Source of the DNA: an uncultured Candidatus Saccharibacteria bacterium
GTDB taxonomy: Bacteria > Patescibacteriota > Minisyncoccia > UBA6257 > Colwellbacteraceae
Direction: 5' to 3'
Length of the DNA stretch: 53,620 bases
Assembly (NCBI GenBank): GCA_964518695.1
Contig: CAZFGN010000002.1
Coordinates: 1 to 53,620 of the forward strand
Positions 10,701 through 42,929 of this stretch are shown piece by piece. Numbering within the stretch: the stretch's first letter is position 1; the number at the start of each line of letters is the position of its first letter. The notes under the pieces were generated by a model. That model had not been told where the DNA came from. It saw nothing but the letters and a program-made list of their open reading frames with translations, and made no database searches. The translations under genes were made by a program, and so were the position numbers.

Positions 10701-10938
10701 CCTCTCTTACTTTATCGCCTACTTTAATACCGACCTCTTGGCCTTTCTTCGCCGAAACAATATCTTTATGATCAAACTGCATTGAGGTTACCTTTTGAAT
10801 AAAATCGCTTGTAGCCCCCTTAAAATGGATTTCTTCGTTAAGTTTAACCGCTTTGTTAAATTTAACTATCGCTACGCCGACACCGCTGTAGTAGTGGGTA
10901 ACAGCGCCTATGGCTTTTGATCCTTTTTTATTTGGCAT
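10675..10938 (-). CDS. small translation elongation factor-like (EF-Tu domain 2-like beta-barrel) protein
   Basis: AIGAVTHYYSGVGVAIVKF...IHFKGATSDFIQKVTSMQFDHKDIVSAKKGQEVGIKV...REGDEV matches the conserved ~85-aa family found in CPR bacteria and archaea. Confidence 0.6.
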   Translation of the reverse strand: MPNKKGSKAIGAVTHYYSGVGVAIVKFNKAVKLNEEIHFKGATSDFIQKVTSMQFDHKDIVSAKKGQEVGIKVGDKVREGDEVLEVV

Positions 10939-14157: not shown

Positions 14158-14159
14158 AA

Positions 14160-14741
14160 TTATTCTTTTATTTTCTGCAAAGCGTCTCGCAGTCGCGCGT
14201 CTACTCCCTTCACGTTTGGATCCACTTTGGCGATAGTGTTTTTCGCCTGCCGAGACGAATAACCTAGACTTATGAGCGCTTCGTAAACATCTGAATCTGA
14301 TTCCATAAGACGCAGCGTTTCCTCTCCTTCTTTTTCATCAACTTTGATTTTATCTTTTAATTCAACCACTATGCGCTCTGCGGTTCTTTTGCCAATACCG
14401 TAAGACTTCTGAAGAATTTCTTTTTCTCCTCTCGTAATTGCCGCGGCCAAATGCTCTACCGGTGCCAAACTTAAAATACCCAAGGCCGATTTCGGACCTA
14501 TTCCGGATATAGAAATCAAAGCCTCGAAAAGGCGGATCTCTTTCTCGTGAAGAAACCCATAAAGACTCATACTATCTTCCTTCACCTGGAAATGAGTAAG
14601 GAGACTCGTTTCAACTCCAACTTCAGGCAACTTGTCATAAGTCCCGGAAGAAACGAGCACCTTGAGGCCCAGTCCGTGGACATCCACCACTACATAGCCG
14701 ATTTTCTTCTCTTGTATTTTGCCCTGTACCGAATGAATCAT
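14160..14741 (-). CDS. ruvA: Holliday junction DNA helicase subunit RuvA
   Basis: MIHSVQGKIQEK...YVVVDVHGLGLKV...LISISGIGPKSALGIL...GIGKRTAERIV. The internal ATG at 14741 fits the canonical RuvA N-terminus better than the track start at 14783. Confidence 0.85.
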   Translation of the reverse strand: MIHSVQGKIQEKKIGYVVVDVHGLGLKVLVSSGTYDKLPEVGVETSLLTHFQVKEDSMSLYGFLHEKEIRLFEALISISGIGPKSALGILSLAPVEHLAAAITRGEKEILQKSYGIGKRTAERIVVELKDKIKVDEKEGEETLRLMESDSDVYEALISLGYSSRQAKNTIAKVDPNVKGVDARLRDALQKIKE

Positions 14742-14823
14742 ATTCATTAGTATACACCTAGCGCCTCTTATAGTAATTTCCAATTTGTTTGACTTTTATC
14801 TCTCGAGTTATTAAGATTGGGCT

Positions 14824-15165
14824 ATGATTTCGAAAAAAGATTTGGCTAAGTTAGAATCTATTCTCGAACAAGAGAAAAAGACTATAGAAAAAGAAATCGG
14901 AGACCTTGGGGTGAATGATATGGGGAGCGATACCGATCACGGCGAAGAGGAAGCTGACGAAACGGAAGAGGTTGTTACTCATCAAGGGATGATCTCTCCT
15001 TTAAAAGAGAGATTGAACGACGTGAATCTTGCCTTAGACAAAATCGGCGCGAATGCCTACGGTGTTTGCGAAGATTGCGGCGAAGAGATTTCGTTGGATC
15101 TTCTTAAAGCGGATCCGGAATCTCGTCTTTGTAAAAAATGCAAGCTTAAGCAAAAGAAGGGATAA
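14824..15165 (+). CDS. TraR/DksA-family C4 zinc-finger protein
   Basis: An acidic coiled region is followed by CEDCGEEI...LCKKCK. Confidence 0.75.
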   Translation: MISKKDLAKLESILEQEKKTIEKEIGDLGVNDMGSDTDHGEEEADETEEVVTHQGMISPLKERLNDVNLALDKIGANAYGVCEDCGEEISLDLLKADPESRLCKKCKLKQKKG

Positions 15166-15173
15166 TAGAAGTA

Positions 15174-16697
15174 ATGCGACTTGCTAAGGTTTACTCCGCT
15201 GAATTAGAAGGAGTTAAGGCTAAATTAATAGAAGTGGAGGTCGACCTGAATGTCGGCCTCCATAGTTTTAACATTGTAGGTTTAGCCGACAAAGCACTTT
15301 CCGAGGCCAAAGAGAGGGTCGGCTCCGCCATAAAGAATGCCGGCTTTAAGCCGCCGACTAAAGAAAATAGGAAAATAACCGTAAACTTAGCCCCGGCGGA
15401 CGTGAAAAAGACCGGTTCGCAATATGATTTGGCTATTGCCGTAGGATATCTTTTGGCCACCGGTCAAATTAAAGAATTCGATTCGACTAATAAGTTATTC
15501 CTGGGAGAACTATCTTTAAACGGCGACTTAAGGCCAATGGCTGGCGCCTTAAATTTCGCCACTCTAGCCAAAAAAATCGGTATCAAAGAAATTTTTCTTC
15601 CAGAAGCTAACGCAGGCGAAGCTGGCTTGGTAGAGGGCATTGCTGTTTTCCCAATACCTTCCTTGAGCCAACTCATAAACCACTTAGAAGAAACTAAATT
15701 TGTTGCCTCTTCTCCCAAAACGAAATTCTTGCCGAAGGAAGATAATGATTTCAATATCGATGACGTAAAGGGACAAGAAGCCGCTAAACGCGCGCTTACT
15801 ATTGCAGCCGCCGGCGGTCACAATATCCTGATGAGCGGTCCGCCTGGATCCGGCAAAACTATGCTCGCTAAAGCGCTCACATCAATTCTCCCGCCACTCT
15901 CTCTTGAAGAGTCAATTGAAGTTTCTGAAATATGGAGTGCCGTAGGCCTTTTACAAGGATCGCACCTTGTGACGCGTCCCTTCAGATCACCACACCAAAC
16001 CGCTTCCCCGGTATCAATAGTTGGCGGTGGTCCGAATCCCAGGCCGGGAGAAATAAGCCTAGCTCACCGCGGCATACTTTTCTTAGACGAACTGCCAGAG
16101 TTTAGAAGAGACCTATTAGAGGCTTTAAGACAACCTCTTGAGTCCGGCGAAATGGCCGTCTCCCGCATTAAGGTGAGTTTAATTTTCCCAGCTAGATTTA
16201 CGCTTGTTGCCGCCATGAACCCCTGTCCATGCGGTTACTACGGAGACCCAGAAAAAGAATGTAGCTGCAGCGCCTATGAAGTTTTCAAATACCAGAAGAA
16301 AATTTCAGGGCCATTGCTTGATAGGATAGATATTCAAATAAATGTGCCGCGCGTGAAATTTGAAAATCTAAAAGATAGGAATAGCTCAAGAGCTATAATA
16401 TCCTTTAAAGACTTAGTGCAAAGTGCGAGAGAAATGCAAAAAGAAAGGTTTGGTCAAAATAAGCTAGACATATTAACTAACTCCGAAATGTCGTCTAAGG
16501 ATTGTGAAAAACTAATAAATTTAACAAGAGAAGCCAATGATTTCTTAAAAGAGGTTTTTGATAAAACACTCCTATCAACTCGCGGCTACTACCGCATACT
16601 TAAAACCGCCCGCACAATTGCCGATTTGGAAGAGAACGAAAGAGTAGAGGCTAATCATGTTGCTGAAGCTTTTCAGCTAAGAGTAAGGGAGAAATAA
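15174..16697 (+). CDS. comM: YifB/ComM-family Mg-chelatase-like AAA+ ATPase
   Basis: GPPGSGKTMLAKAL, GILFLDELPEF and a CPCGYYGDPEKECSCS zinc module are present. Confidence 0.85.
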   Translation: MRLAKVYSAELEGVKAKLIEVEVDLNVGLHSFNIVGLADKALSEAKERVGSAIKNAGFKPPTKENRKITVNLAPADVKKTGSQYDLAIAVGYLLATGQIKEFDSTNKLFLGELSLNGDLRPMAGALNFATLAKKIGIKEIFLPEANAGEAGLVEGIAVFPIPSLSQLINHLEETKFVASSPKTKFLPKEDNDFNIDDVKGQEAAKRALTIAAAGGHNILMSGPPGSGKTMLAKALTSILPPLSLEESIEVSEIWSAVGLLQGSHLVTRPFRSPHQTASPVSIVGGGPNPRPGEISLAHRGILFLDELPEFRRDLLEALRQPLESGEMAVSRIKVSLIFPARFTLVAAMNPCPCGYYGDPEKECSCSAYEVFKYQKKISGPLLDRIDIQINVPRVKFENLKDRNSSRAIISFKDLVQSAREMQKERFGQNKLDILTNSEMSSKDCEKLINLTREANDFLKEVFDKTLLSTRGYYRILKTARTIADLEENERVEANHVAEAFQLRVREK

Positions 16698-16704
16698 ATA
16701 CTAC

Positions 16705-18480
16705 TTGCCTATTAGCTCTATGGATGAGTCGGTAAAAAATAAACCTGCCCTTAGCCCGCAACAAGGAGAGGCAGTCCGTTACGGCAAAGGACCACTTCTA
16801 ATTTCCGCGGGCGCCGGGAGCGGAAAAACAAGAACATTGACAGAGAGGCTAATCAAATTGATAGATGATGGGGTCAGCCCAGAAAAAATTATAGCCATTA
16901 CCTTTACTAATAAAGCCGCTAACGAAATTAAGGACCGGGTCAGATCAGGGCTTAAAAACTTGGTGGACCTTCCATTTCTAGGCACTTTTCATTCTTTCGG
17001 GGCAAAAATATTAAGAAATGAGGGGCAACTATTAAGTAGAGATAAGAATTATGTAATTTTTGACAATAGTGACTCTTTACGCCTCATTAAAAAAATCATT
17101 AAGGATCTAGAATTGTCCGAGACAAAATATCCCGCCCCCAAAACGCAGAAACAGGTATCTTCGATAAAAGATGAGTTGGTAAACTCCGATGAACTCGAAG
17201 AACCGATGAAAACTATTTTTGAAACTTACGAGGACAAACTTAAAACGCAAAACGCCTTTGACTTCGACGACTTGATAGAAAAAGTTGTGAGGATTATGCA
17301 AAAAAATCGAGAAGTTCTAGAAAAATATCAGAATAAGTTTGATTACATACTTATAGACGAATTCCAGGACATAAACAGCAGTCAATACGCTTTAGTAAAA
17401 TTATTGGCTGACGTTCACCGCAACTTGAACGTCGTGGGGGACGACAATCAGTCCATATATGGTTTCCGAGGAGCTGATTTTAGAAACTTTTTGAATTTTG
17501 AAAAAGATTGGCCGGAGGCTAAAATCGTGCACCTCGGAGAAAACTACCGATCAACGAGAAATATAGTAGAAGCTTCCGCGCAAGTAGTGAAAAATAATAA
17601 ACTTCAAAGACCCAAAAACCTTTCTACTCCTAACGACGAAGGCGAGTTAATAAAAGTCTTGGCCACCGAGAACTCTGATGACGAAGCTTTTCAGATAGTA
17701 AATGACATTTTGGATCTTTCCCAAAAAACTTATGCCGCTATACTTTACAGAACCAATGCACAATCTCGCCCTTTAGAGCAAACACTCAACTTTAATTCCA
17801 TTCCCTATGAAATATTCGGCGGATTAAAGTTTTATGAACGGAAGGAAATCAAGGATATTATAGCGGGCCTGCGATACGGACTTAATCCCAGAGATGAAAT
17901 GAGTTCGGAGCGTCTTATAAAAACTTTTAGAAAGGCGGAGGCCAAAGAACTAAGAGAACGTCTGCCGGAGCTTGCTAAAAATCTGCCGCCTATAGAAATC
18001 ATAGGGTTCTTTATGAAAACGACTAATTATAAAAATCATTTGAAATCTAAGTTTGATAATTCAGAAGAGAGAATGGAAAACATTATTGAATTAATTAATT
18101 TCGCCGGTAATTTCCCTTCTCTCCAAGAGTTCATTGAGAGGGTCTCTTTATTACAAGCAACCGACGATATTAAATCGCCTAAAGTTTCCCCAAGAGTAAA
18201 ACTTATGACCATCCATCTCTCAAAAGGTTTAGAATTTGATAACGTCTACATTGCTGGCGCAAACGAAGGCGTTTTGCCTCACCAAAGATCATTGTTGTCT
18301 AGTTCTGATGTAGAAGAAGAGAGACGGCTCATGTATGTCGCTATGACTCGAGCTCGCAAGAAACTTACCTTGAGTTTTTACGGCCCCGCTTCCCGTTTCT
18401 TATACGAAATACCCCCGGAGCTTATTAACTTCTCAAGCCCTATGAATTGGAAAGATGAAGACGAAATCCACCTAATCTAG
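16705..18480 (+). CDS. UvrD/PcrA/Rep-family SF1 DNA helicase (compact, 591 aa)
   Basis: GAGSGKTRTL, ILIDEFQD, NYRS, MTIHLSKGLEFD and YVAMTRARKKL are present. The track start is TTG, with an ATG 15 nt downstream. Confidence 0.85.
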   Translation: MPISSMDESVKNKPALSPQQGEAVRYGKGPLLISAGAGSGKTRTLTERLIKLIDDGVSPEKIIAITFTNKAANEIKDRVRSGLKNLVDLPFLGTFHSFGAKILRNEGQLLSRDKNYVIFDNSDSLRLIKKIIKDLELSETKYPAPKTQKQVSSIKDELVNSDELEEPMKTIFETYEDKLKTQNAFDFDDLIEKVVRIMQKNREVLEKYQNKFDYILIDEFQDINSSQYALVKLLADVHRNLNVVGDDNQSIYGFRGADFRNFLNFEKDWPEAKIVHLGENYRSTRNIVEASAQVVKNNKLQRPKNLSTPNDEGELIKVLATENSDDEAFQIVNDILDLSQKTYAAILYRTNAQSRPLEQTLNFNSIPYEIFGGLKFYERKEIKDIIAGLRYGLNPRDEMSSERLIKTFRKAEAKELRERLPELAKNLPPIEIIGFFMKTTNYKNHLKSKFDNSEERMENIIELINFAGNFPSLQEFIERVSLLQATDDIKSPKVSPRVKLMTIHLSKGLEFDNVYIAGANEGVLPHQRSLLSSSDVEEERRLMYVAMTRARKKLTLSFYGPASRFLYEIPPELINFSSPMNWKDEDEIHLI

Positions 18481-18522
18481 GAAGTATACTATAAACCCGA
18501 TCGGATATATAGTATACTTTGG

Positions 18523-19350
18523 GTGAATGTCAAAAATAGTTATCAAATAATCATGAGGGGTAGATTAGGACAACATTTTTTGCACGACGAGGATGCCTTG
18601 CGGAAAATTGCCGATGCCCTAGAAATTAAATCAAATGATATAATTGTGGAAATCGGCCCCGGGCACGGGGAGTTGACTAAGTATTTAGCTGAAGCTGAAC
18701 CAGGAAAAATTATAGCGATTGAGAAAGATAAAAAGTTAGCCTATAAGCTACAACAAAGTATAAAGAATACAGTATACAGTAAAACTTTAGAGGTTATTGA
18801 AGGCGATGTTTTAAAAATTATCCCGTTGCTCCATACTAAATACTCTATACTAAATACTTCCTACAAAATCGTAGGCAACATTCCCTACTACATCACTGGC
18901 TACTTGTTGCGAATCTTAGGAAAACTAGAAAACAAACCGTCTTTGATTGTTTTCACGATGCAAAAAGAAGTGGCCGAAAGAATCTGCGCCAAACCGCCCA
19001 AGATGAATCTTCTGGCGGCGAGCGTTCAATTCTGGGCCAAACCGGAAATCGTTGGTTTTATTAGTAAAAAGTCGTTTAGTCCAGCGCCGGAGGTAGATAG
19101 CGCGATAATAAAAATAGTTCCAAAAACAATTAAGAAGGGCCTTGAGAAACAATATTACCAGTTAATAAAAATCCTTTTTAAGCAACCTAGAAAAATGATA
19201 CTAAACAATTTATCTGCCGAAATAAAAATTTCCAAGGAAGAGATCACAAAAAAACTCACCCGACAAGGCATCAAACCAAACACGAGGCCACAAAACCTTA
19301 CAATGCAAGATTTGACAACTCTTAGTAATGTATTTAGCGACAAAAAGTGA
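18523..19350 (+). CDS. rsmA: 16S rRNA (adenine1518/1519-N6)-dimethyltransferase
   Basis: GQHFL, VEIGPGHGELT and GNIPYYIT are present. The start may instead be the ATG at 18553. Confidence 0.85.
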   Translation: MNVKNSYQIIMRGRLGQHFLHDEDALRKIADALEIKSNDIIVEIGPGHGELTKYLAEAEPGKIIAIEKDKKLAYKLQQSIKNTVYSKTLEVIEGDVLKIIPLLHTKYSILNTSYKIVGNIPYYITGYLLRILGKLENKPSLIVFTMQKEVAERICAKPPKMNLLAASVQFWAKPEIVGFISKKSFSPAPEVDSAIIKIVPKTIKKGLEKQYYQLIKILFKQPRKMILNNLSAEIKISKEEITKKLTRQGIKPNTRPQNLTMQDLTTLSNVFSDKK

Positions 19351-19366
19351 TATTATTTAGTAAATA

Positions 19367-21808
19367 ATGGAGAAGAAAAAGATACTGGCGATACTGGTAG
19401 TGGTTGTCTTGGTTCCACGCTTATTTTATGGCATAGCATCAGCACAAACTACTCCTACGGGCCGTTTTAGTATTGAGAGCAATCCTTCATCGGGTCCTCT
19501 TCTATTTAACCCCACCAACCTTTTTAATACCGCCGCATCCACCCCAGCATTTACACCGTCAACTGGCTCTGGTAGTAATATAGGCTCTGGATCTATCTGT
19601 TCTGACTCCGGCTCTGGCTCTCCCTGGCTTAATTTTTTTGGAGACGCAGCTAAAGTAGGGTTGCCTATATTTCTTATCAACATTATCACCAGCACCTTAG
19701 CTGACCCACCGTCTGGTGGTGGGAGCATTCTTGGGTTCGGCTTTAATTTCAACCCTGGGGGAATGCTTGAACCCTTAGATGAAGCAAGTGACTTTCTGTT
19801 CAATAAATGGCTACAAGTGGTTTTCTACGGCTTTCTCGCTTCAATTGCTGTATGGGTAGCAAGCTATTTATTGGAAATCGGTATAGCGCTCAACCTATCT
19901 TTGTCCCAAAGTGCAGTCATCACAACAGGATACGGAATAATTATGGCGTTAACAAATATTAGTTTTGTGATTGGTATAGTGGTAATAGCTTTCGCCACTA
20001 TGTTCAGAAAGGCGGGTTGGGACGCTCAGTCAATACTCATGCGTCTTATTATTGCGGTACTTCTGGTAAACTTTAGCTTGTTCCTCGCACTGGGCGTTGC
20101 TAATGTGGGTACGAGACTCACTGAAGCTTTTGTAAACGGCGGTACTCCCTTGGGGGCCACTTTTGCCAAGACTTATAACGTTGCCACAATATACTGCAAC
20201 GTGGCCAAGTTCATGAACGCCACTAGTGTAAACGGAGTAAATCCGAGTCAACTAGATCCGTCAGATCCGAAGAACATTAACAAAATAAGCATAGACGAGC
20301 AAAAATCACGGTCTTTTTGGGATAAGTATGTAATTGGTCCTATGCAGTCTTACTTTATTATGGTGGTGGGCATTATTCTCGCAGTGATACTTACTATAAT
20401 AGGAGCGCTTACCCTAATCGCTATCTTCCTATTCCTTGTTGTGCGCTATGTGGCGCTTACCATACTGCTTATATTCGCACCCCTCGCCTGGCTGGGATTT
20501 GCTTTCCCTAAATTAAACTTGCCTATAATAGGCAATGCCTGGAGCGGATGGTGGACTATATTTCTTAGGTGGACATTCTTGGGACCGCTACTTGCCTTCC
20601 TACTATATCTGACAACGGAGATGGTTAAACACCTCGGAGACCCTGCTACTATAAAGCAGGTCGCCGGGCTTGGTTTAGCACAGGGCCTTGTCCAAATGAT
20701 CGTAATTACCATCTTCAGCTTAGCGGGTTTATACGCGGCCAATAAACTAAGCGCAGCCGGAGCCACTGTTGCTTATGGATTAGCTTCTAAAATGGGGGGG
20801 ATGGCCTTGGCGAAACTTAAAACTACTGGCAAAGAAGCTGGGATAAGACTTAGTAACTCGGTCCTTGGATCAGAGAAGGTAAGAGGGCTGACCGCAAAGA
20901 TACAAAAAACATCGATACCAATACTTAAACCTTTAGGAAAACAACTCAACGTCCTTGGGGCAAAAACAGAGAAACTTGTCAGTGAGGACAAGTTTAAAGA
21001 CTTATCACCTCAAAGATTAGCCGCATTAGTACCCACGCTTCATGGTCCCGATCGCGTAGCCGCACTCTTGAAACTCGCGAAAGGCGGCGACGTGAACGAC
21101 CTCAAAGACCTTGATAAGCATCTTAATAAAGAAACTGAGGCTCTCTTTAAGAGTTATGGCAAAAAATTTGATGAGGTTGAAAAAACCATTGGCATGAATA
21201 TTGCAACTTACCAAGCTCTAAAGAAAGGCACTAAGGAGGGCAGAGAGGAGGCCAAAAAGGCGTCTGAAGAATTCTTCAGGGGATTCAATCAGAAGGACTT
21301 CTCTAAACTGCGCATCAGCGATTCGTACAACGATAAGAAAGTTAAGGTTCTCTATGGTCTCAATGAGAGTATGAATAGAGCTATGCGAGAAGCCATAGCT
21401 GCTGGTTTAGTAGACAATTCCGGCTACATTAATAAGGCCGCATCCGGCATTAAGTCTGAAAGCTTCTCTAACTACACCAATGAAATACTTAAATCAAAAC
21501 TTCCAGACAGTATCTCCATAGAAATTGAAAAGAGAGTAACCTACAAAGGCACAAACCAACCAGCTATCGGGGTGTCGTTTAAAGAAGCAGAGAAGGATCC
21601 TGAAAAATACACAATTTCGTCAGAGCGGGCATCTATGTCAAAAGAAGAAGTGCTTCAAGAACTCAAAACCAACAAGGAATTCAAGGAAACACTAATGAAA
21701 TCCCTCGAACAATCAGATCCTACGTTTAAAAAATCTTTTGAGAGGATGACAGCGAACCGAGAGGTCGGGACAATGACTTTCGATACGGATACCCAACCTC
21801 CAATCTAA
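19367..21808 (+). CDS. TrbL/VirB6-like polytopic membrane protein with secreted low-complexity N-terminus and long charged C-terminal tail
   Basis: It has a signal-like N-terminus, an S/G/T/P-rich stretch, at least 6 TM helices in the centre and a roughly 300-aa K/E-rich tail. It sits immediately upstream of the VirB3/VirB4-like genes. The family call is by architecture and context only. Confidence 0.5.
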   Translation: MEKKKILAILVVVVLVPRLFYGIASAQTTPTGRFSIESNPSSGPLLFNPTNLFNTAASTPAFTPSTGSGSNIGSGSICSDSGSGSPWLNFFGDAAKVGLPIFLINIITSTLADPPSGGGSILGFGFNFNPGGMLEPLDEASDFLFNKWLQVVFYGFLASIAVWVASYLLEIGIALNLSLSQSAVITTGYGIIMALTNISFVIGIVVIAFATMFRKAGWDAQSILMRLIIAVLLVNFSLFLALGVANVGTRLTEAFVNGGTPLGATFAKTYNVATIYCNVAKFMNATSVNGVNPSQLDPSDPKNINKISIDEQKSRSFWDKYVIGPMQSYFIMVVGIILAVILTIIGALTLIAIFLFLVVRYVALTILLIFAPLAWLGFAFPKLNLPIIGNAWSGWWTIFLRWTFLGPLLAFLLYLTTEMVKHLGDPATIKQVAGLGLAQGLVQMIVITIFSLAGLYAANKLSAAGATVAYGLASKMGGMALAKLKTTGKEAGIRLSNSVLGSEKVRGLTAKIQKTSIPILKPLGKQLNVLGAKTEKLVSEDKFKDLSPQRLAALVPTLHGPDRVAALLKLAKGGDVNDLKDLDKHLNKETEALFKSYGKKFDEVEKTIGMNIATYQALKKGTKEGREEAKKASEEFFRGFNQKDFSKLRISDSYNDKKVKVLYGLNESMNRAMREAIAAGLVDNSGYINKAASGIKSESFSNYTNEILKSKLPDSISIEIEKRVTYKGTNQPAIGVSFKEAEKDPEKYTISSERASMSKEEVLQELKTNKEFKETLMKSLEQSDPTFKKSFERMTANREVGTMTFDTDTQPPI

Positions 21809-21819
21809 AACTACAAAAC

Positions 21820-22638
21820 ATGCTTACAATTCCACAAAAAGAAGTAATTGAACGATGGGATAAACTTCCATATAGCATTAGAGAAGCTATCTTCTCGGAA
21901 GAAAACGCCGATATGCTTGAGAACATCGCCCAAGCTCATAACTTTGACGAAGAAAAACTTCGAGTATTCTCCACCAACGTAGGCGATGTCTTACGAGGAT
22001 TTATACACCCCAATGATTTAACCAAAGAGCTAATAGACGACTTAAAAATTAAGGAAGAAATCGCAAAGGCGATAGTAAGTGAGATTGAGTCAAAAATATT
22101 TAAACCCGTCCGCGTTGATCTTAAAGATGTATACAAGCCACTCGTGAACACTAGCGAAGTAAACGCAACTGTCTCCGTTTCGCAAGAATACCAAGGCGAG
22201 CCTATAAAGCCCCGAGTTAATGTACAAAATGAGGAGACGACTCGTCTTCAAAACCAACCGTTTATCCTCCACAACGAGGAAGAGGTTGAACCGACAAAAG
22301 AAGAACCTTTCCGATCTGTAACCCAGAGACCCATGTTTTATAAACCAATATTCAGCGAAGAATATAAAAAGTCTGTTTTAGAAAAAAAGGCCGCGAGGAT
22401 AGAGTTAGGAGAAGAAACCGAAAAGAAGAAACAGTCGGAAAGCTTTAAAACGCCCATGAAGGAAGGGAGGATTGTTCACTATTCAGAATTTAGAACTCCC
22501 CTTGGGCCATTCGAAAATCAGGAAATAAGAGGACTGGACCAAACAGCGCCGGAAAAAGCGCCGCAGAGCGTACAATCCAAAACCCCAGAAGTTCATCCCA
22601 ATAACGTCGTGGACCTCAAAGACTTGCCATTGGAATAG
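21820..22638 (+). CDS. hypothetical soluble charged protein inside the T4SS-like module
   Basis: The frame is long and open and follows the upstream gene after an 11-nt gap. There is no TM segment and I recognise no motif. Confidence 0.5.
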   Translation: MLTIPQKEVIERWDKLPYSIREAIFSEENADMLENIAQAHNFDEEKLRVFSTNVGDVLRGFIHPNDLTKELIDDLKIKEEIAKAIVSEIESKIFKPVRVDLKDVYKPLVNTSEVNATVSVSQEYQGEPIKPRVNVQNEETTRLQNQPFILHNEEEVEPTKEEPFRSVTQRPMFYKPIFSEEYKKSVLEKKAARIELGEETEKKKQSESFKTPMKEGRIVHYSEFRTPLGPFENQEIRGLDQTAPEKAPQSVQSKTPEVHPNNVVDLKDLPLE

Positions 22639-22639
22639 G

Positions 22640-23155
22640 ATGCAATTTCAAGTTCCGCAGTTCATAGAAACCGAAGACAAAATTGTAGGGCCATTCACCT
22701 TGCGACAATTCCTTTATATCGCCGGGGGCGGGGTTGCAAGTTTCGTGTTGTTTTTTATTCTGCGGCCATGGCTGTGGCTCGTAATCACGCTCTTTTTGGG
22801 ATCTATCAGTGTAGTTATGGCCTTTATCAAAATCAACGGCAGACCAATGAGCGTGTTTATCCCGGCAACATTCAATTACATATGGAGTCCTAGGATATAT
22901 ACATTAAAACCGAAGGTGCAAGAGCAACACATCGAGACAGAAGCAATCTCGCGAACTAAGAAAGGGTCTGTTTTCACCGGCATTAAGAGTCTCTTGGAAA
23001 AGATGGCAACCTCGAAAAACGCGATCCCGAAAAGAGAACAAACTATCGCGGCGGGCAACTTTGATATCCCCCAACGCGAGATTAAAGAGAGGTACGAAGT
23101 TATAAGACGCATAACTGGTGACAGACAAATGGCGAGAAGAATAGATTATAGATAG
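22640..23155 (+). CDS. PrgI-family / VirB3-like membrane protein
   Basis: MQFQVPQFIETEDKIVGPFTLRQFLYIAGGG followed by two TM helices is the characteristic PrgI-family N-terminus. The gene lies directly upstream of the VirB4-like ATPase. Confidence 0.7.
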   Translation: MQFQVPQFIETEDKIVGPFTLRQFLYIAGGGVASFVLFFILRPWLWLVITLFLGSISVVMAFIKINGRPMSVFIPATFNYIWSPRIYTLKPKVQEQHIETEAISRTKKGSVFTGIKSLLEKMATSKNAIPKREQTIAAGNFDIPQREIKERYEVIRRITGDRQMARRIDYR

Positions 23156-23190
23156 CTTATTAATTTTAAGTTTTAAGCTATAATTAGGAT

Positions 23191-25563
23191 ATGTCAGAAA
23201 CTCGCGAGCTAGCTCGCGCGCAAGAACTCGTTAAGGTAAAGGATATTAAAGAAGGTGTGGTGGTTCTGAAAAACGGCGGTCTACGTCGTGTTATTTTGGT
23301 TGATGGCTTAAATTTTGATCTTAAATCAGAAGAAGAACAAAACAGTATAACCTATGCCTACCAAAACTTTTTAAATTCCCTGGACTTTTCTATACAAATA
23401 ATAATCCACTCCCGTAAGTTGAACATCGAAGACTACATAGAAAAATTGGAAAAGCGCGAAACCGCGGAAGAGAGCGAACTATTAAAAACGCAAATTGCCG
23501 AATATAGAGAGTTCGTGAGGGCTTTTGTTGAAACGAACGCCGTAATGACTAAGAGTTTTTTTGTGATTGTCCCTTACGACCCCATCTCCATCCCCGGGTC
23601 CACCAATTCGCTTATGCCAAAGTTTCTCGGCGGAAAGATTGCAAAAGAAGAAAATTCTAAAGAGTCCTCTATCTCACCGAGTCATCGCGAACAGCTACAC
23701 CAAAGAGCGGAACAGGTGATAACCGGCTTGCGCCAGGTCGGCCTGCGAGCCATAAGCCTGGAAGACCAGGAACTACTTGAACTTTTCTTCAACTTCTACA
23801 ACCCGACCACTGTAGAGAAGAGTGAAGCGAAAAGAAGCCGAGAAGAAATAAGCGGCAGTATAGAAGATGTTATTGCCCCATCGTCTGTAGAAATAAACGC
23901 CACCAATCTAAAACTAGGTGACAAATTCGCTAAAACCTTATTCGTCTTAAGTTATCCAAGATATTTATCAAGCGGGTGGTTCTCGCCGATAATTAACTTA
24001 CCGGAACTGACAGACGTCTCTATATTTGTTCATCCGGTGGATACCGGCATAGCATTGAGAAATTTAAGAAAAAAGGCTACCCAAATAGAGTCTCAAATGT
24101 CCTCGAATCAAGAAAAAGGGTTGGTCCGCGATCCGATGCTTGAGATCGCCCTTCAAGATGTCGAATCTCTCCGAGACACTCTTTTACAAGCCACAGAAAA
24201 ACTTTTCAATGTGGGCGTTTACGTAACAATTTACGCTGATTCAGAAAAAGACTTAACGAGACTCGAAGTCGAGATTACCAATCTAATGGATGCGAAACTT
24301 ATTAGTATGAAACCGGCTAATTTCGAGCAAGTCAAAGGATTGGGTTCCGTAATCCCCTTGTGTTCAGACGAGATGTCTATACACGCTCCACTAAACTCTG
24401 GGCCAGTTTCCTCATTTTTCCCCTTTGTCTCTCTTGATCTCACTTCTGAAAATGGCATCTTGTATGGGATTAATAGACATAATAATACGCTTGTAATTTT
24501 CGATAGATTCTCCCTTGAGAACGCCAATATGGTCGTGTTCGCGAAAGCGGGTGCCGGAAAATCATACGCCACCAAACTCGAAGTCGCGAGGTCGCTTATG
24601 ATGGGCACCGACGTACTCATAATAGACCCAGAAAATGAGTATATCTCCTTGGCCGAGGCTGTAAACGGCAGTGTATTTAAAATATCGCTCGATTCTCAAA
24701 ACCATGTGAACCCCTTTGATATACCTATCATCCCGGAAGATGAAGAACCGGGTGAGGTTCTTAAATCCCACATTGTGAACTTAACTGGCCTGCTAAAACT
24801 TATGCTAGGGGCGATATCGCCGGAGGAAGAAGCTATGCTAGACAGAGCCATAACAGAAACTTACGCCTCAAGGGACATTACTCCGGAGAGAGACTTCTCT
24901 AAAACAACTCCACCGCTCTTGGAAGATCTAGAGGCTATACTTGCCGGCATGGAAGGTGGCAAAGGAATGGCTGAACGCCTCTATAGATTCACCAAGGGAA
25001 GCTACGCCGGTTTTACTAATAAACCGACGAACGTTAACATAGCTAATCGTTTGATTGTTTTCTCCATAAGAGATCTAGAAGACGAGTTGAGGCCCATAGC
25101 TATGTATATCATCTTAAACTTCATCTGGAATCTGGTGAGGGCCCAACTAAGAAAGAGGATTATGATAATTGATGAGGCTTGGTGGATGATGAAATATCCG
25201 GACTCCGCTTCTTTTCTTTTTGGCTTGGCTAAAAGGGCTAGGAAATATTATTTAGGAATTTCTACTATCACCCAGGATGTCGAAGATTTTTTAACCTCTC
25301 CTTATGGGAAACCCATTATTACAAACTCGTCTTTACAGCTTCTCCTTAAACAAGCGCCGGCTACCGTTGATATTACCGCCAAAGCTTTCAACTTAACCGA
25401 TGTTGAAAAAAATTATCTTTTGGAAGCCGATGTGGGTCAAGGTCTGTTTGTCGCCGGACTCAAAAGAGTAGCCATACAGATTGTGCCTTCGTATTTCGAG
25501 GACAAACTCATAACGACAAATCCAAAGCAGATATTGGAAATGAAGGAAAAAGAGGGGTTATAA
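23191..25563 (+). CDS. virB4: VirB4/TrbE/PrgJ-class type IV secretion ATPase
   Basis: The size is 790 aa, with Walker A FAKAGAGKSYATK and Walker B RIMIIDEAWWMM. The N-terminal domain layout is typical of VirB4. Confidence 0.8.
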   Translation: MSETRELARAQELVKVKDIKEGVVVLKNGGLRRVILVDGLNFDLKSEEEQNSITYAYQNFLNSLDFSIQIIIHSRKLNIEDYIEKLEKRETAEESELLKTQIAEYREFVRAFVETNAVMTKSFFVIVPYDPISIPGSTNSLMPKFLGGKIAKEENSKESSISPSHREQLHQRAEQVITGLRQVGLRAISLEDQELLELFFNFYNPTTVEKSEAKRSREEISGSIEDVIAPSSVEINATNLKLGDKFAKTLFVLSYPRYLSSGWFSPIINLPELTDVSIFVHPVDTGIALRNLRKKATQIESQMSSNQEKGLVRDPMLEIALQDVESLRDTLLQATEKLFNVGVYVTIYADSEKDLTRLEVEITNLMDAKLISMKPANFEQVKGLGSVIPLCSDEMSIHAPLNSGPVSSFFPFVSLDLTSENGILYGINRHNNTLVIFDRFSLENANMVVFAKAGAGKSYATKLEVARSLMMGTDVLIIDPENEYISLAEAVNGSVFKISLDSQNHVNPFDIPIIPEDEEPGEVLKSHIVNLTGLLKLMLGAISPEEEAMLDRAITETYASRDITPERDFSKTTPPLLEDLEAILAGMEGGKGMAERLYRFTKGSYAGFTNKPTNVNIANRLIVFSIRDLEDELRPIAMYIILNFIWNLVRAQLRKRIMIIDEAWWMMKYPDSASFLFGLAKRARKYYLGISTITQDVEDFLTSPYGKPIITNSSLQLLLKQAPATVDITAKAFNLTDVEKNYLLEADVGQGLFVAGLKRVAIQIVPSYFEDKLITTNPKQILEMKEKEGL

Positions 25564-25569
25564 TGTGAA

Positions 25570-25875
25570 TTGACTATGATTAAAACAGTTTTAGCGGCGA
25601 GCGAATCGCTTGACTTGGTTCAAGCAATCTCCACAATAGATTTCGGCGGCGGCTTTACCATCAATAACATCTTTACTTGGTCATTAGGAATAGGAGGCGT
25701 AGCGGCCCTTGGAATCATCATCTATGGCGGAATATTGTATATTGCTTCCGCTGGTAACTCCTCAAGGCAAGGAGAAGCCAAAGAGTGGATTAAAGCCGCC
25801 GTCTATGGCCTTATACTACTAACTATCGGTTATCTAATATTATACGTAATTAACCCAGCAGTTCTTGGTAAATAA
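25570..25875 (+). CDS. TrbC/VirB2-like two-TM pilin candidate
   Basis: This 101-aa protein has two hydrophobic helices (WSLGIGGVAALGIIIYGGILYI, AVYGLILLTIGYLILYV) separated by a short polar loop. It starts 6 nt after virB4. The track start is TTG, with an ATG at 25576. Confidence 0.6.
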   Translation: MTMIKTVLAASESLDLVQAISTIDFGGGFTINNIFTWSLGIGGVAALGIIIYGGILYIASAGNSSRQGEAKEWIKAAVYGLILLTIGYLILYVINPAVLGK

Positions 25876-25883
25876 GAACGCGC

Positions 25884-26321
25884 TTAGTCTAGGTTTGTAA
25901 TCTTAACCACAACGTAACGATCTTTCGTTTCGCCAACGCTTTCGGTTGTAACGTCCGGCCTCATAGAAAGCTCCGCGTGTACAAGCCTCCTCTCGTAAGC
26001 GTTCATTGTAGGCAATTTAACAGGCTCTTTGGTTGCTACCGCTCTCCTAGCCGCCGCCTTGGCAAGCTCAAGAATCAACCTTTCTCTTTCTCTGCGGTAG
26101 TTGTTAATATCAACGACGACCGGGTAAATATTTCCCCTCTTTGCTATTAATCTCACTATCCTATTAATGTTCGAGACCAGATCCGGCAAACGCTCCGCAG
26201 TAAGAGCGTCGTCATCAATGGTTACAGAAAAGACTTTGGCGTCCGGGCCCGTCTCTACTCGGAACTTGGTAAATCCCATTAATTCTACTAATCTAACTAA
26301 TTGTTCTTTCAAGTTTTCCAT
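25884..26321 (-). CDS. jag: Jag/KhpB-like KH + R3H RNA-binding protein
   Basis: The R3H motif is LPTMNAYERRLVHAEL. The gene sits in the conserved position downstream of yidC. Confidence 0.8.
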   Translation of the reverse strand: MENLKEQLVRLVELMGFTKFRVETGPDAKVFSVTIDDDALTAERLPDLVSNINRIVRLIAKRGNIYPVVVDINNYRRERERLILELAKAAARRAVATKEPVKLPTMNAYERRLVHAELSMRPDVTTESVGETKDRYVVVKITNLD

Positions 26322-27012
26322 GGCTAAACATTTTGTTTATAACAACCTGTTGAAATATAGAAAATACGCTACTTGTAAGCCAATAGACGCCAAGCGCCGC
26401 CGGGAGAGTAACGAGAAACACAGCCGTAATGGCTGGCCCTATATAGACCATGTTCCGACCCATTCTTTCCGTCTGATTTAACTCTTCGCCAGCCTTCAAT
26501 TTAGGTAAAGAGAGTTTCGATTGCGCGTATTGTGCCACAGTAGCTAAAACCGCGATAATAATACTTCTTTTACTTAGATCTAAACCCAATAATGTGTGAT
26601 TTATAACTTCCGGTTTGTGAATAATCGAATACAATAAATTAAACGAGCTTTCGTTCAACCCACCTTTAAAAATACTAAACAGGACAAAGAGGATTGGCAG
26701 TTGGGCTAATATTAGAATTATAGGAGTTAGTGGGTTGGCTTTGTGATCCGCATAAAGCGCGAGTACCGCTTTTGTCTGCGCTTCCCGATCATCTTTGTAT
26801 TTCTCTTGAATCTTTTTGATGTGGGGTTGTAGCTCTTGAGCTAATCGCTGATGCCGCAGGGAGGCATGAAACAACGGGAAAAGGATTATTCTTATTAAAA
26901 TGGTTAATAAAATTATAGCCAGGCCCAAATCTTCAAGGGCTATTGAGTTATAGAGCAGCACCAAAACGTTGAAGAGCGGCCTATACAGAATCTCATTAAA
27001 CAAACTTGCCAT
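26293..27012 (-). CDS. yidC: membrane protein insertase YidC (short form)
   Basis: ILLTILIRIILFPL...QPHIKKIQEKYKDD...NPL is present, and the gene follows the rpmH-rnpA-yidC-jag order. Confidence 0.85.
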   Translation of the reverse strand: MASLFNEILYRPLFNVLVLLYNSIALEDLGLAIILLTILIRIILFPLFHASLRHQRLAQELQPHIKKIQEKYKDDREAQTKAVLALYADHKANPLTPIILILAQLPILFVLFSIFKGGLNESSFNLLYSIIHKPEVINHTLLGLDLSKRSIIIAVLATVAQYAQSKLSLPKLKAGEELNQTERMGRNMVYIGPAITAVFLVTLPAALGVYWLTSSVFSIFQQVVINKMFSHGKLERTIS

Positions 27013-27331
27013 ATCTTTGAAAACGGTTTTTTAATTCCTCTTTAGTAAGGTTTATCATAGGCGCTTTTGCGATTATAAGCAAATCATTGGGCGCTTTTAT
27101 AGACTCGTTCTTTGTAGATAAAAAAGGCTCGCTTAAATAGCTTAAAACTCTTCTCCTTAGTTTATTCCTCGAAACCGAACCCTTAAGGACGCGTTTGCCC
27201 AAGAGGACTCCTAAGCGGCTGTAAGGCAAATTATTAGGACTAGCCTTGATGAGAACACAACTATCGGAAAATACAGTTTTTGAGTTTTTTGGGAAAAGGT
27301 TTATTGGAACTCTTAGCTTCTTTGGGAACAT
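26996..27331 (-). CDS. rnpA: ribonuclease P protein component
   Basis: A basic RNR-like segment (SVSRNKLRRRV) is present. The ATG shares one base with the rpmH stop (TAATG). Confidence 0.75.
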   Translation of the reverse strand: MFPKKLRVPINLFPKNSKTVFSDSCVLIKASPNNLPYSRLGVLLGKRVLKGSVSRNKLRRRVLSYLSEPFLSTKNESIKAPNDLLIIAKAPMINLTKEELKNRFQRYGKFV

Positions 27332-27465
27332 TAAGCCGTAACCCTGGCTCTCCCTTTGGCAATTCTCCTCTTTATAACATTTCTACCCCCCACAGTCCTC
27401 TTCCTTTTTAGGAATCCGTGAGTCCTGGCCCTTTTCCTCTTTTTTGGTTGATAAGTTAAAGACAT
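27331..27465 (-). CDS. rpmH: 50S ribosomal protein L34 (44 aa, below ORF-track cutoff)
   Basis: My own translation is [44 protein letters not shown]. Confidence 0.9.
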
Positions 27466-27485
27466 TTATATGGGATTGTATCTTC

Positions 27486-27494
27486 TTATCCACA
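27486..27494. promoter_or_regulatory. perfect DnaA box TTATCCACA in the rpmH-dnaA gap (a 7/9 box TAATCAACA follows at 27497-27505)
   Basis: This is an exact match to the TTATCCACA consensus, 68 nt upstream of the dnaA ATG. Confidence 0.7.
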
Positions 27495-27561
27495 ATTAAT
27501 CAACACCTTGCTAGACTTTACGGCATTTGACTCTTGTTTTCTGGCAATCAATAATTAAGCA

Positions 27562-28920
27562 ATGCAGAACGATGAACTTTGGCAATCCGTTTTATCGGAA
27601 ATGGAATTGCAAGTCTCAAGAGCAAATTTTCTCACTTGGCTTAAGAATAGCCGCCTCGTAGAAAACACGGAAGACGCCGTCATGATAGCCTTGCCGAACC
27701 ACTTCGCTAAAGAATGGGTAGAAACAAAATACGACAAGCTGATACTTGGAATAGTAAGAAACTTCATCACGTCTGTTAAAAAAGTTGAATATGTTGTTGA
27801 GGGCGGTTTAATAAAAACCTCAAGCCTCCACAAGCCTCGTGAGATTTCAAATGATAAACAGTTGGTCATAGAAGAATTCAAGGTTGACCCAGAAACTAAT
27901 CTTAATCCGCGTTATACCTTAAATTCTTTTATTGTCGGCCCATCAAATGAGTTGGCTCATTCGGCGGCATCCGCAATCATCCAAAGCGTAGGCATAAAAT
28001 ATAACCCGCTTTTTATTTATGGTGGCGTAGGGTTGGGGAAAACTCATCTTATCCAAGGTATGGGCAATGAAATTAAAAATCTCTATAAGAACAAAATAAA
28101 AGTTAAGTATGTAACTTCTGAAAAATTCACCAACGATGTGGTTTGGGCAATAAGGAATAGGCGCACCGAAGATATTAAAAACACTTATAGGCACGTGGAT
28201 GTTTTAATTATCGACGACATCCAATTCATAGGCGGCAAAGAAAAAACGGAGGAAGAATTTTTCCATACTTTCAATGCCCTTCATGAAAACAATAAACAGA
28301 TTATTATTTCTTCAGACAGGCCCCCCAAAGCAATCCCCATACTAGAGGAAAGGTTAAGATCGAGGTTTGAGGGTGGAATGATAGCGGATATAAGTTATCC
28401 GGAATATGAAACAAGGGTAGCTATTATAAAAACCAAGATTCAGGAAAGGGGCGCCTCAATCGATGATGAATCAATCGATTTTATTGCCAAGAAGCTACAA
28501 AAGAATATTAGAGAAATTGAAGGTATTCTAAATAAGGTTGTTTTTTACCAAACAAATTATCAGAAACCAGTAACTTCAAATCAAGTAGAAAAGATTATTG
28601 CCGAATTTACAGAGAGGTCTAGGGCAAGTGTCAGCCCCAACCAGATAATTAAGGTTGTCGCTGATTTTTTTGAAATTCCCGCGAGCGATTTAACTGGTAA
28701 ATCAAGAAATAAAGAGTTTATTGAACCACGACAAATAACCATGTACTTACTAAGAGATCTATTAGATATGTCATATCCTTTTATTGCCAATAAGATAGGC
28801 AAAAGAGACCACACAACCGTAATTTATGCCTGTAAAAAATTATCAAAAGACATGGAAAAAAATCAATCACTAAATGAAAAGTTGTCAGAAATTAAAGAAC
28901 TAATTAACAAGATGGGGTAA
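27562..28920 (+). CDS. dnaA: chromosomal replication initiator DnaA
   Basis: The N-terminus is LWQSVLSEMELQVSRANFLTWL, with Walker A GGVGLGKTHL and Walker B LIIDDIQF. The domain IV HTH contains RDHTTVIYA. Confidence 0.95.
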   Translation: MQNDELWQSVLSEMELQVSRANFLTWLKNSRLVENTEDAVMIALPNHFAKEWVETKYDKLILGIVRNFITSVKKVEYVVEGGLIKTSSLHKPREISNDKQLVIEEFKVDPETNLNPRYTLNSFIVGPSNELAHSAASAIIQSVGIKYNPLFIYGGVGLGKTHLIQGMGNEIKNLYKNKIKVKYVTSEKFTNDVVWAIRNRRTEDIKNTYRHVDVLIIDDIQFIGGKEKTEEEFFHTFNALHENNKQIIISSDRPPKAIPILEERLRSRFEGGMIADISYPEYETRVAIIKTKIQERGASIDDESIDFIAKKLQKNIREIEGILNKVVFYQTNYQKPVTSNQVEKIIAEFTERSRASVSPNQIIKVVADFFEIPASDLTGKSRNKEFIEPRQITMYLLRDLLDMSYPFIANKIGKRDHTTVIYACKKLSKDMEKNQSLNEKLSEIKELINKMG

Positions 28921-37078: not shown

Positions 37079-37566
37079 TCTACATTAAAGAGGTTTTGCC
37101 CAACCCTGTGGGGCGGGACACTGAAGGAGAATGGATAAAGTTAATTAACACCGGCAACGAAATTGTAAGCCTTGATGGTTGGTACATAAAAGACGAAGGC
37201 GGAAAAATTTTCAACCTAACAGGCAAGAAAGTCAATTCATTAGCTGAAATAACATTGAATTCTGTGGAGACAAAAATCTCTTTGAATAATACCAAAGAGC
37301 TGATCGCTCTCTATAATAGTGATGGCGGGGTTGTCGATCAACTTACTTATGACGGGGTAAGCGAGGGCGAAGTTATTGTGGCTAAAGCATTTCAGGGAGA
37401 AAAAATAGATAAATCCCAAGCCATGGTTACTACTCCCCAAGTTTTTAAAGACATATCTATTAACACGAACTACGAATGGTGGCCACTGTTTCTAGGAATA
37501 TTTTTATCGGTTGCCGCGGGCATTGTCGGCAGTCTAATTTTTAAGAAAATTAATACGCCTTTGTGA
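37075..37566 (+). CDS. lamin tail domain (LTD) protein with C-terminal TM anchor
   Basis: VLPNPVGRDTEGEWIKLINTGNEIVSLDGWYIKDEGG is the LTD signature, and the C-terminal helix is WWPLFLGIFLSVAAGIVGSLIF. The GTG start overlaps the ruvB stop. Confidence 0.7.
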   Translation: MIYIKEVLPNPVGRDTEGEWIKLINTGNEIVSLDGWYIKDEGGKIFNLTGKKVNSLAEITLNSVETKISLNNTKELIALYNSDGGVVDQLTYDGVSEGEVIVAKAFQGEKIDKSQAMVTTPQVFKDISINTNYEWWPLFLGIFLSVAAGIVGSLIFKKINTPL

Positions 37567-42868: not shown

Positions 42869-42901
42869 ATTCTCTAAAATACGAAACATCTATTTTCGAA
42901 A

Positions 42902-42929
42902 ATAGAATTGCCGATTGCCGGATAGAATT
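42902..42929. repeat. ATAGAATT / TTGCCGR repeat cluster B
   Basis: The sequence is ATAGAATTGCCGATTGCCGGATAGAATT. The heptamers are TTGCCGA (42908-42914) and TTGCCGG (42915-42921). The 13-mer ATAGAATTGCCGA recurs at 43236-43248. Confidence 0.8.

Follow-up and report, generated by a model that had tools for sequence, protein, structure and literature searches.

The 53,620-nt contig analysed here (the window) carries at positions 19367–25875 a module of five genes which, judged from profile matches and gene order, almost certainly encodes a chromosomal type IV secretion system (T4SS) of the Patescibacteria clade, derived from the conjugation machinery of monoderm bacteria (MPF_FATA). The organism, a bacterium with an ultrasmall genome, is predicted to be a Colwellbacteria-like member of the Parcubacteria/Paceibacteria grouping, with Candidatus Colwellbacteria as its closest named relatives. 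A large part of bacterial diversity belongs to the Patescibacteria, whose members seem to live attached to other microbes. What the present analysis adds is a clade of TrsD–VirB4 fusions and a conserved accessory protein family with C-terminal motifs.

Overall description of the locus

The five genes lie on the forward strand and are separated by gaps of 11, 1, 35 and 6 nt (Table 1). They encode an extended VirB6-like membrane protein, an accessory protein of 272 aa, a PrgI/VirB3-like protein, a VirB4-class ATPase and a VirB2-like minimal pilin candidate. Their coordinates, lengths and common strand agree with those given in an earlier reading of the DNA made from its letters and open reading frames (ORFs) alone (the sequence-only reading), and the peptide strings MQFQVPQFIETEDKIVGPFTLRQFLYI, FAKAGAGKSYATK and RIMIIDEAWWMM that it had quoted were found in the module proteins. 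It had assigned four of the products as a VirB6/TrbL-like membrane protein, a PrgI/VirB3-like protein with two transmembrane (TM) segments, a VirB4-class ATPase and a two-TM pilin candidate of the VirB2/TrbC type, and all four assignments held up on the evidence set out below. TM segments in the five proteins were located by a crude hydropathy scan. No second copy of the pilin, PrgI, accessory or VirB6-like gene turned up in a search of the window. The GC content of the module (0.42–0.435) is the same as that of its flanks.

The VirB4-class ATPase

The 790-aa protein matches the NCBIfam model conju_CD1110 with an E value of 1.8e-121 (406.8 bits against a cut-off of 325). It also matches the Pfam families TraC_F_IV, AAA_10 and P-loop_TraG and, among structurally characterized chains, the C-terminal domain of VirB4 in PDB entry 4ag5 (E = 8.8e-42). 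The hydropathy scan predicts zero TM segments. The Walker A (aa 451–458; nt 24541–24564) and Walker B (aa 656–664; nt 25156–25182) residues are invariant across the alignment of VirB4 relatives. More than 7,900 relatives were retrieved at E < 1e-30; the best 120 of them are 63–100% identical to the window protein, and the named ones among these 120 are Candidatus Colwellbacteria, Parcubacteria or Patescibacteria.

The protein consists of a TrsD-like N-terminal part (about aa 1–215; nt 23191–23835) and a VirB4 core (aa 224–790). The NCBIfam TrsD model matches aa 17–127 with an E value of 4.7e-8, a match that falls short of the full-length cut-off of the model. We compared this arrangement across 83 loci, including 80 further loci from GTDB species representatives, all 80 of which are of Patescibacteria type. 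In 72 of the 83 loci VirB4 is encoded by two adjacent genes, one for a TrsD-like protein of ∼215 aa and one for a core of ∼600 aa, which correspond to residues ∼10–210 and 224–786 of the window protein, respectively. The break in the split loci (e.g. L006:2754-5192 and L008:9962-12406) is an in-frame stop or a frame change, and the junction falls at about aa 211–223 in the window numbering. A single ORF of 768–790 aa is present in the window and in loci L001–L005, L009, L011 and L052. In a neighbour-joining tree of the VirB4 core region the fused forms make up one clade nested among the split forms, with L005 apart; judged from this topology, the fusion in L005 is independent of the main fused clade. 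The tree points to the fused VirB4 as a derived re-fusion of TrsD-like and VirB4 genes, which supports the view that TrsD is the detached N-terminal domain of VirB4.

The VirB6-like membrane protein

The 813-aa protein begins with a predicted signal peptide (aa 1–26) and a low-complexity segment rich in Gly, Ser, Thr and Pro (approximately aa 27–85), followed by a TM core at about aa 130–470, in which the hydropathy scan places some 6–7 TM segments within aa 150–450, and by a charged, helical C-terminal domain (aa 471–813). The region after the last TM segment contains ten Lys and Arg residues against two Asp and Glu residues, so that by the positive-inside rule this C-terminal domain of ∼340 aa is probably cytoplasmic.

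A word-indexed search returned 17 relatives of the protein, and a profile built from these reached 24,913 representative clusters at E ≤ 0.001 and 13,763 at E ≤ 1e-30. By these counts the family is very large and fast-diverging, and the protein is no orphan. Matches to PF04610 (TrbL/VirB6) at E ≤ 0.01 were found in 13 of 57 family members (best E = 5.8e-7), and no other Pfam family recurs among them. An AlphaFold2 (AF2) model computed from a 103-sequence alignment has a predicted local distance difference test score (pLDDT) of 85–98 in the TM core, and the helical C-terminal domain is also confidently modelled. In a Foldseek search of the PDB with this model the top three matches (8rtd_L, 7o3v_G and 8rt9_F) are all TrwI/VirB6 of R388, with probabilities of 0.99–1.00 and target-normalised TM-scores of 0.46–0.55 over 311–319 columns. 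The matches of the relatives and of the predicted fold thus indirectly support the assignment of the protein as an 'extended VirB6'. Direct sequence searches of PDB chains, with the protein alone or with the 103-sequence profile, returned coiled-coil noise only and no VirB6.

PrgI and the pilin candidate

The 171-aa protein matches PF12666 (PrgI) with an E value of 8.4e-10 (39.5 bits; cut-off 27) and has its two TM segments at about aa 23–63. The 101-aa protein matches PF18895 (T4SS_pilin; E = 2.9e-11, 43.7 bits; cut-off 26.6). It comprises two TM helices joined by a short polar loop, without a C-terminal extension. Its match to the Mbov_0395 pilin-like family is weak (23.5 bits; cut-off 40), and no match to PF04956 (TrbC/VirB2) was found at E ≤ 1.

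In the clade of the window the pilin candidates are 99–105 aa in length, while the pilin-domain genes that follow virB4 in other lineages have products of 130–1,231 aa (examples are listed in Table 1). Eight of these large proteins were scanned, and PF18895 was confirmed in five. The L011 protein has a Peptidase_M23 domain at its C-terminus (E = 2e-33) and that of L016 a C39-like peptidase domain, which suggests that in those related lineages the pilin module may anchor or display cell-wall hydrolases.

Conservation of the locus and absence of mobility genes

Neighbouring genes were counted by local profile searches in those loci that have enough flanking sequence, 55 upstream and 61 downstream of VirB4. 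PrgI directly precedes VirB4 in 54 of the 55 loci, and the VirB6-like gene and the gene of the 272-aa family are found upstream in 51 and 44, respectively. On the downstream side, a pilin-domain gene is present in 39 of the 61 loci, YidC in 43 and DnaA in 41. Two relatives on long contigs, L001 and L003, share the order of the window, DksA–ComM–(UvrD)–KsgA–VirB6-like–accessory–PrgI–VirB4–pilin, which continues past the pilin with Jag–YidC–RnpA–RpmH, DnaA–DnaN, PBP1–RuvC–YebC and PilB. The synteny with jag–yidC–rnpA–rpmH in related genomes that the sequence-only reading had raised is therefore real: ksgA and the order jag–yidC–rnpA–rpmH–dnaA–dnaN recur across dozens of species.

Identities between the window and these two relatives (L003 and L001, in that order) are 80 and 70% for VirB4, 78 and 67% for DnaA, 69 and 47% for DnaN, 68 and 52% for PBP1 and 62 and 50% for PrgI. 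The pilin is 61% identical to that of L003 and has no match in L001; the VirB6-like protein is 44% (residues 1–475 only) and 30% identical, and the accessory protein 30 and 24%. VirB4 is as conserved as DnaA and, by this measure, the locus is under equally strong purifying selection. The conserved synteny together with the DnaA-like conservation of VirB4 marks the locus as a vertically inherited chromosomal apparatus and not an integrated conjugative element (ICE).

A Pfam scan of all called ORFs of at least 75 aa in the window detected no relaxase, VirD4/TraG-type coupling protein, integrase, transposase, VirB1 or VirB8; this and every other statement on the absence of mobility genes covers the 53.6-kb contig. 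In L001 and L003 no coupling protein was found within 10 kb on either side of virB4. The scan agrees with the sequence-only reading, which had reported the absence of a coupling ATPase, relaxase, VirB1, VirB8, integrase and transposase. It had also reported the absence of any VirB11 homologue; no VirB11 is present, but an ATPase of the T2SSE superfamily, to which VirB11 belongs, does exist at 34164–35837. With 433–438 bits for PilB/GspE models against 44 bits for VirB11, this ATPase was rejected as a VirB11. Taken with the synteny in many species, the lack of mobility genes in the window bears out the earlier description of the module as reduced, chromosomally fixed and non-conjugative, and we consider that the system is probably non-conjugative.

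Several observations concern the loci used in this comparison. In L001 the place of pcrA/uvrD, between comM and ksgA, is taken by a gene encoding LysM and Peptidase_M23 domains (4634–5656, reverse strand), which may be a VirB1-like wall hydrolase and has no counterpart in the window. The PilB/GspE-type ATPase gene of the window stands alone between yebC and ruvB, without neighbouring genes for PilC, PilM or a pilin, and this position is kept in L001 and L003. Many loci that group with the Parcubacteria/Paceibacteria by VirB4 and synteny are titled 'uncultured Candidatus Saccharibacteria', and L024 is titled 'Bdellovibrionales'; the organism names on those records of metagenome-assembled genomes (L004–L083) look unreliable.

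The accessory protein

The 272-aa protein is rich in charged residues (33%), has zero TM segments in the hydropathy scan and matches no family in Pfam or NCBIfam. It was described as an orphan in the sequence-only reading, which proved not to be the case, as 22 homologues are present in the database and the gene occupies the same operon position, between the VirB6-like gene and prgI, in the 44 loci counted above. In the AF2 model an N-terminal helical domain (aa 1–110) is predicted with pLDDT > 90 and the remainder is disordered. Searches with this model gave nothing significant in the PDB (best E = 1.4) or in BFVD, a viral set (best E = 0.31).

The disordered linker that follows the N-terminal domain carries short conserved motifs. 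Close relatives share the motifs PFILHxEEE, RPxFYKPxFSEEYK, AARLELGEE and RIVHYSEFRTPL, and in these relatives the C-terminus NVVDLKDLPL is invariant. The C-terminal peptide of the window protein, VHPNNVVDLKDLPL (aa 258–271; nt 22591–22632), is likewise invariant. Among the last 25 residues of 55 family members, 'hhDL(K/R)' (e.g. NVVDLKDLPL in the window protein) occurs in 22 and 'DxY(R/K/H)E' (e.g. DPYREP) in 17, compared with eight and two, respectively, of 1,980 other ORFs taken as background. Which class of C-terminal motif is present depends on lineage, and both are strongly over-represented in the family compared with the background ORFs. The exact motif at the C-terminus of the window protein was found on orthologues only and was rejected as a secretion signal shared with other proteins. 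These features and the model suggest a cytoplasmic protein that probably serves as an adaptor or regulator and carries its C-terminal peptide on a tether.

Genomic context and other features

By their predicted products, the remaining genes of the window are housekeeping genes. Those upstream of the module include, besides the four listed in Table 1, genes for IF3, L20, PolX, ClpB, UDG, a Mur ligase and RuvA, and those past DnaA encode DnaN, PBP1, RuvC, YebC, the PilB/GspE-type ATPase, RuvB, TsaE, Fpg, S20, FtsH, S1 and GyrA. The distance from the end of the pilin gene to rpmH–dnaA is 1.5–1.7 kb, within the 2 kb stated in the sequence-only reading. There are three perfect DnaA boxes in the window, and two of them, at 27486 and 29061, flank dnaA.

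Nine co-directional genes from the dksA-like gene to the pilin gene (14824–25875) are separated by gaps of no more than 42 nt, which suggests one long transcription unit. This run is transcribed towards dnaA and, if oriC lies at dnaA, would be head-on to the leftward fork, an orientation that fits awkwardly with the published idea of a gene-dosage or high-expression benefit. The GC skew is flat across the region. Promoter and terminator scans of 14000–27800 gave counts no higher than in shuffled sequence and are thus uninformative on operon boundaries. An Rfam scan of the window returned three tRNAs only and no riboswitch or small RNA near the module; the tRNA genes (at 9406, 45287 and 46560) lie at least 10 kb from it.

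One of these tRNAs was called by ARAGORN as tRNA-Ile with the anticodon TAT (UAU; 46560–46633, reverse strand). In bacteria AUA is usually read by a lysidine-modified CAU tRNA, and a UAU anticodon is uncommon. Between ruvB and tsaE, at 37075–37566, a 163-aa protein is encoded that contains a Lamin Tail Domain (PF00932; E = 2e-12). The ∼780 nt at 42868–43649 contain no ORF of at least 70 aa and no Rfam match, and the small ORFs without a Pfam or NCBIfam family include those at 45566–45961, 46122–46550, 10675–10938 (reverse strand) and 42641–42868.

Table 1. Coordinates of the module, its neighbours and the large pilin-domain genes of related loci
Feature	Locus	Position	Strand	Length (aa)	Family or remarks
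Upstream co-directional housekeeping genes (dksA-like, comM/yifB, pcrA/uvrD, ksgA)	Window	14824–19350	+
VirB6-like extended polytopic membrane protein	Window	19367–21808	+	813
Accessory protein, conserved, probably cytoplasmic	Window	21820–22638	+	272	No Pfam/NCBIfam match
PrgI/VirB3-like small membrane protein	Window	22640–23155	+	171	PF12666
VirB4-class ATPase, MPF_FATA/CD1110 type	Window	23191–25563	+	790	NCBIfam conju_CD1110
VirB2-like minimal pilin candidate	Window	25570–25875	+	101	PF18895
Downstream context	Window	25884–28920			jag (R3H), yidC, rnpA and rpmH on −; dnaA on +
rpmH	Window	27331–27465	−
dnaA	Window	27562–28920	+
Large pilin-domain gene	L011	12731–13543
Large pilin-domain gene	L016	13806–15440
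Large pilin-domain gene	L045	12495–15620
Large pilin-domain gene	L067	2346–6041

Comparison with known systems

A survey of 3,035 Patescibacteria genomes described a Patescibacteria VirB4 clade that is monophyletic, lies within MPF_FATA and is associated with genes for TrsD, PrgI/VirB3, VirB6 and VirB2-like (PF18895) proteins (Quinonero-Coronel et al., Microb Genom 2025, PMC12102498). Relaxases were near-absent, VirD4-like genes were present in 2,918 of the 3,035 genomes, mostly far from virB4, and in Paceibacteria and Microgenomatia the T4SS was located near dnaA, dnaN, rnpA, rpmH and ksgA (PMC12102498). In Southlakia epibionticum, a cultured Saccharibacterium, transposon sequencing (Tn-seq) showed the T4SS and pilins to be essential for epibiotic growth, and neither a coupling protein nor a relaxase could be recognised there (Wang et al., Cell 2023, PMC10633639). 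The composition of the system, its missing relaxase and its origin-proximal position are thus already published, and the locus is a further example of a described class. The sequence-only reading had called such gene sets essentially uncharacterised; this has been partly overtaken by published work on composition, phylogeny and location (PMC12102498) and on essentiality (PMC10633639).

The chromosomal T4SSs of the Patescibacteria clade, among them that of S. epibionticum ML1 (SEML1_0006–0019), share with the window locus an MPF_FATA-type VirB4, PrgI/VirB3, a VirB6-like protein, a PF18895 pilin and a TrsD-like element, without a nearby relaxase or coupling protein; the position of the window locus is that reported for Paceibacteria. 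A difference is that the window has the TrsD-like part and VirB4 in one 790-aa protein, whereas TrsD is a separate gene in the 72 split loci of our set. Saccharimonadia-like loci have arrays of 5–7 pilins and the window has one minimal pilin; ML1 also has a peptidase/lysozyme gene downstream of virB4, and the window has neither. The conserved accessory gene of the window goes unnamed in the published survey of Patescibacteria T4SSs.

The Gram-positive MPF_FATA systems (C. difficile CTn2/CD1110, the Prg system of pCF10 and the Tra/Trs systems of pIP501/pGO1) resemble the window locus, whose VirB4 passes the CD1110-family cut-off and which encodes a PrgI family protein, and the TrsD-like N-terminal region of the window VirB4 parallels TrsD of pGO1 and TraD of pIP501. 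A monoderm envelope is common to both, with no outer-membrane core of VirB7, VirB9 and VirB10. In contrast to these systems, the window lacks a relaxase, VirD4/TcpA, a VirB1-type hydrolase, a VirB8-like protein and a surface adhesin, and it has a VirB2-like pilin where they have none. Furthermore, they are borne on plasmids or ICEs, whereas the window locus is chromosomal, syntenic and vertically inherited.

In the R388 Trw and Agrobacterium VirB systems, VirB2, VirB3, VirB4 and VirB6 form an inner-membrane core implicated in pilus biogenesis. The best fold match of the 813-aa AF2 model, TrwI/VirB6, comes from this group. Compared with these systems, VirB1, VirB5, VirB7, VirB8, VirB9, VirB10, VirB11 and VirD4 are absent from the window, and its VirB6 is extended by the hydrophilic C-terminal domain of ∼340 aa and the N-terminal low-complexity segment. 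No similarity to the diderm VirB6, VirB3 and VirB2 models (PF04610, PF05101 and PF04956) was detected in the window proteins.

Two more distant systems bear comparison. The Mycoplasma ICE ATPase Mbov_0397 is the second-best NCBIfam VirB4 model for the window protein (326 bits, below its cut-off of 590); both lineages are wall-poor or monoderm with small genomes, and in both VirB4 stands beside a small two-TM protein, but the Mycoplasma ICEs are mobile, with a DDE transposase and a coupling protein, and the window locus is fixed. The archaeal Ced system, in which a VirB4-family ATPase serves import and cooperates with a type IV pilus, is a conceptual precedent for a 'reversed' T4SS. The window VirB4, however, scores just 32.4 bits with CedB (cut-off 700) and 13.7 bits with CedD (cut-off 600), and no CedA-like proteins were identified.

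Possible functions

Taking the R388 and Agrobacterium systems as a guide, we lean towards the view that the module is a pilus-assembly core. At the cytoplasmic membrane, hexamers of VirB4 would bind to VirB3 and VirB6, and the two-helix pilin would be pulled from the membrane by VirB4 using ATP and stacked on the VirB6 platform to give a short pilus or tube across the thin monoderm envelope. This tube might touch the host bacterium and act as an attachment or exchange conduit for episymbiotic growth, and not in conjugation. The N-terminal domain of the accessory protein could bind one partner and its tethered C-terminal peptide another, for example VirB4 or the cytoplasmic domain of VirB6. A pilus-like conduit has also been put forward in a 2025 review (PMC12857230). 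DNA uptake, host contact and effector delivery are speculation as functions, here as in the literature.

A number of points weigh against this view. The 813-aa protein has no match in NCBIfam or, at E ≤ 1, in Pfam (including PF04610), i.e. it lies below any Pfam threshold for VirB6, and the Foldseek E values of its TrwI matches are just 0.13–0.2. The pilin candidate has no classical signal peptide, and since the pilin domain heads much larger and partly peptidase-bearing proteins in other lineages, it may be a membrane anchor and not a filament subunit. The window contains no equivalent of VirB5, VirB8 or VirB1, all of which take part in pilus biogenesis in model systems, and a coupling protein may be encoded elsewhere in the genome, beyond the contig. 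Finally, we know of no pilus or assembled machine observed in any Patescibacterium, and the mechanism is drawn by analogy only. With these points taken into account, we hold the explanation as a whole with moderate confidence.

The main competing explanations concern what the apparatus transports. It might export proteins, with a distal VirD4-type protein recruiting effectors for injection into the host or release onto it. The widespread occurrence of VirD4-like genes in the surveyed genomes (PMC12102498) is in keeping with this, as is the suggestion by Wang et al. that the system might export proteins instead of transferring DNA (PMC10633639), and the C-terminal peptide of the 272-aa protein is readable as a secretion signal or adaptor motif. 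On the other hand, the distal type IV coupling protein (T4CP) of S. epibionticum is non-essential, unlike the T4SS genes (PMC12102498), there is no candidate effector in the module and no T4CP on the contig. We therefore regard export as unlikely to be the explanation, although it is compatible with a pilus-assembly mechanism and does not exclude it. Alternatively, the machine could work in reverse, in the manner of archaeal Ced or H. pylori ComB, taking up host DNA, nucleotides or macromolecules to feed an auxotrophic cell. Import, of DNA or of other macromolecules, is the reading preferred by the authors of the 2025 survey (PMC12102498). The window VirB4 gives weak matches to CedB and CedD, the ATPases of archaeal DNA import; comM and pcrA/uvrD belong to the gene run of the module and stand directly upstream of it, and the recombination genes ruvA, ruvB and ruvC are nearby. 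The CedB and CedD scores are, however, far below the cut-offs of the models, no partner families appeared in the window scan, and the helicases upstream are encoded by housekeeping genes; their linkage may do no more than reflect the conserved synteny of the origin region. Moreover, competence of S. epibionticum requires ComEC and type IV pili, and the loss of comEC leaves viability unaffected, whereas the T4SS is essential (PMC12102498, PMC12857230). On these grounds import appears quite improbable. A related possibility, to which we give a still smaller chance, is a feeding conduit independent of any coupling protein, in which a VirB2-like tube on the extended VirB6 would carry host macromolecules inward and the 272-aa protein would replace VirD4 as gatekeeper or adaptor, its N-terminal helical domain binding one component and its C-terminal peptide ('hhDL(K/R)' or 'DxYRE', depending on lineage) binding the ATPase or the cytoplasmic domain of VirB6.

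The remaining explanations concern the nature of the locus itself. An ordinary or decaying ICE that has recently lost its relaxase, coupling protein and integrase, or has them just beyond the window, could be imagined from the naming of the VirB4 family after a conjugative transposon (CD1110), the conjugative ancestry of the system (PMC12102498) and the presence of tRNA genes in the window, distant as they are from the module. This is very improbable and is largely refuted by the missing mobility genes, none of which occurs within 19 kb upstream or 27 kb downstream, and by the insertion-free synteny with ksgA and jag–yidC–rnpA–rpmH–dnaA across dozens of species. The divergence of VirB4 also follows that of DnaA, there is no compositional break, and all five ORFs are intact, with VirB4 highly conserved. 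To the notion that the ORFs are a non-functional relic or have arisen by chance, for which nothing speaks beyond the lack of direct functional data in this organism, we give practically no credence: profile E values go down to 1e-121, the Walker A and B residues are invariant, VirB4 is 80% identical where DnaN is 69% identical, and the operon order is kept in more than 50 species-level genomes. These conservation data refute it.

Implications

The fusion of TrsD and VirB4 argues that TrsD acts in a 1:1 ratio with VirB4. With one each of a VirB6-like protein, an accessory protein, PrgI, an unsplit VirB4 and a 101-aa pilin, the window locus is a clean minimal example of its class; it carries no pilin array, hydrolase genes or extensions and could be a convenient starting point for structural studies or for reconstitution in a heterologous host. 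The accessory family with its C-terminal peptide motifs is a candidate for a missing component of this class of T4SS. If the 272-aa protein does act as the gatekeeper or adaptor of a feeding conduit, a core component of a T4SS class would so far have gone unrecognised.

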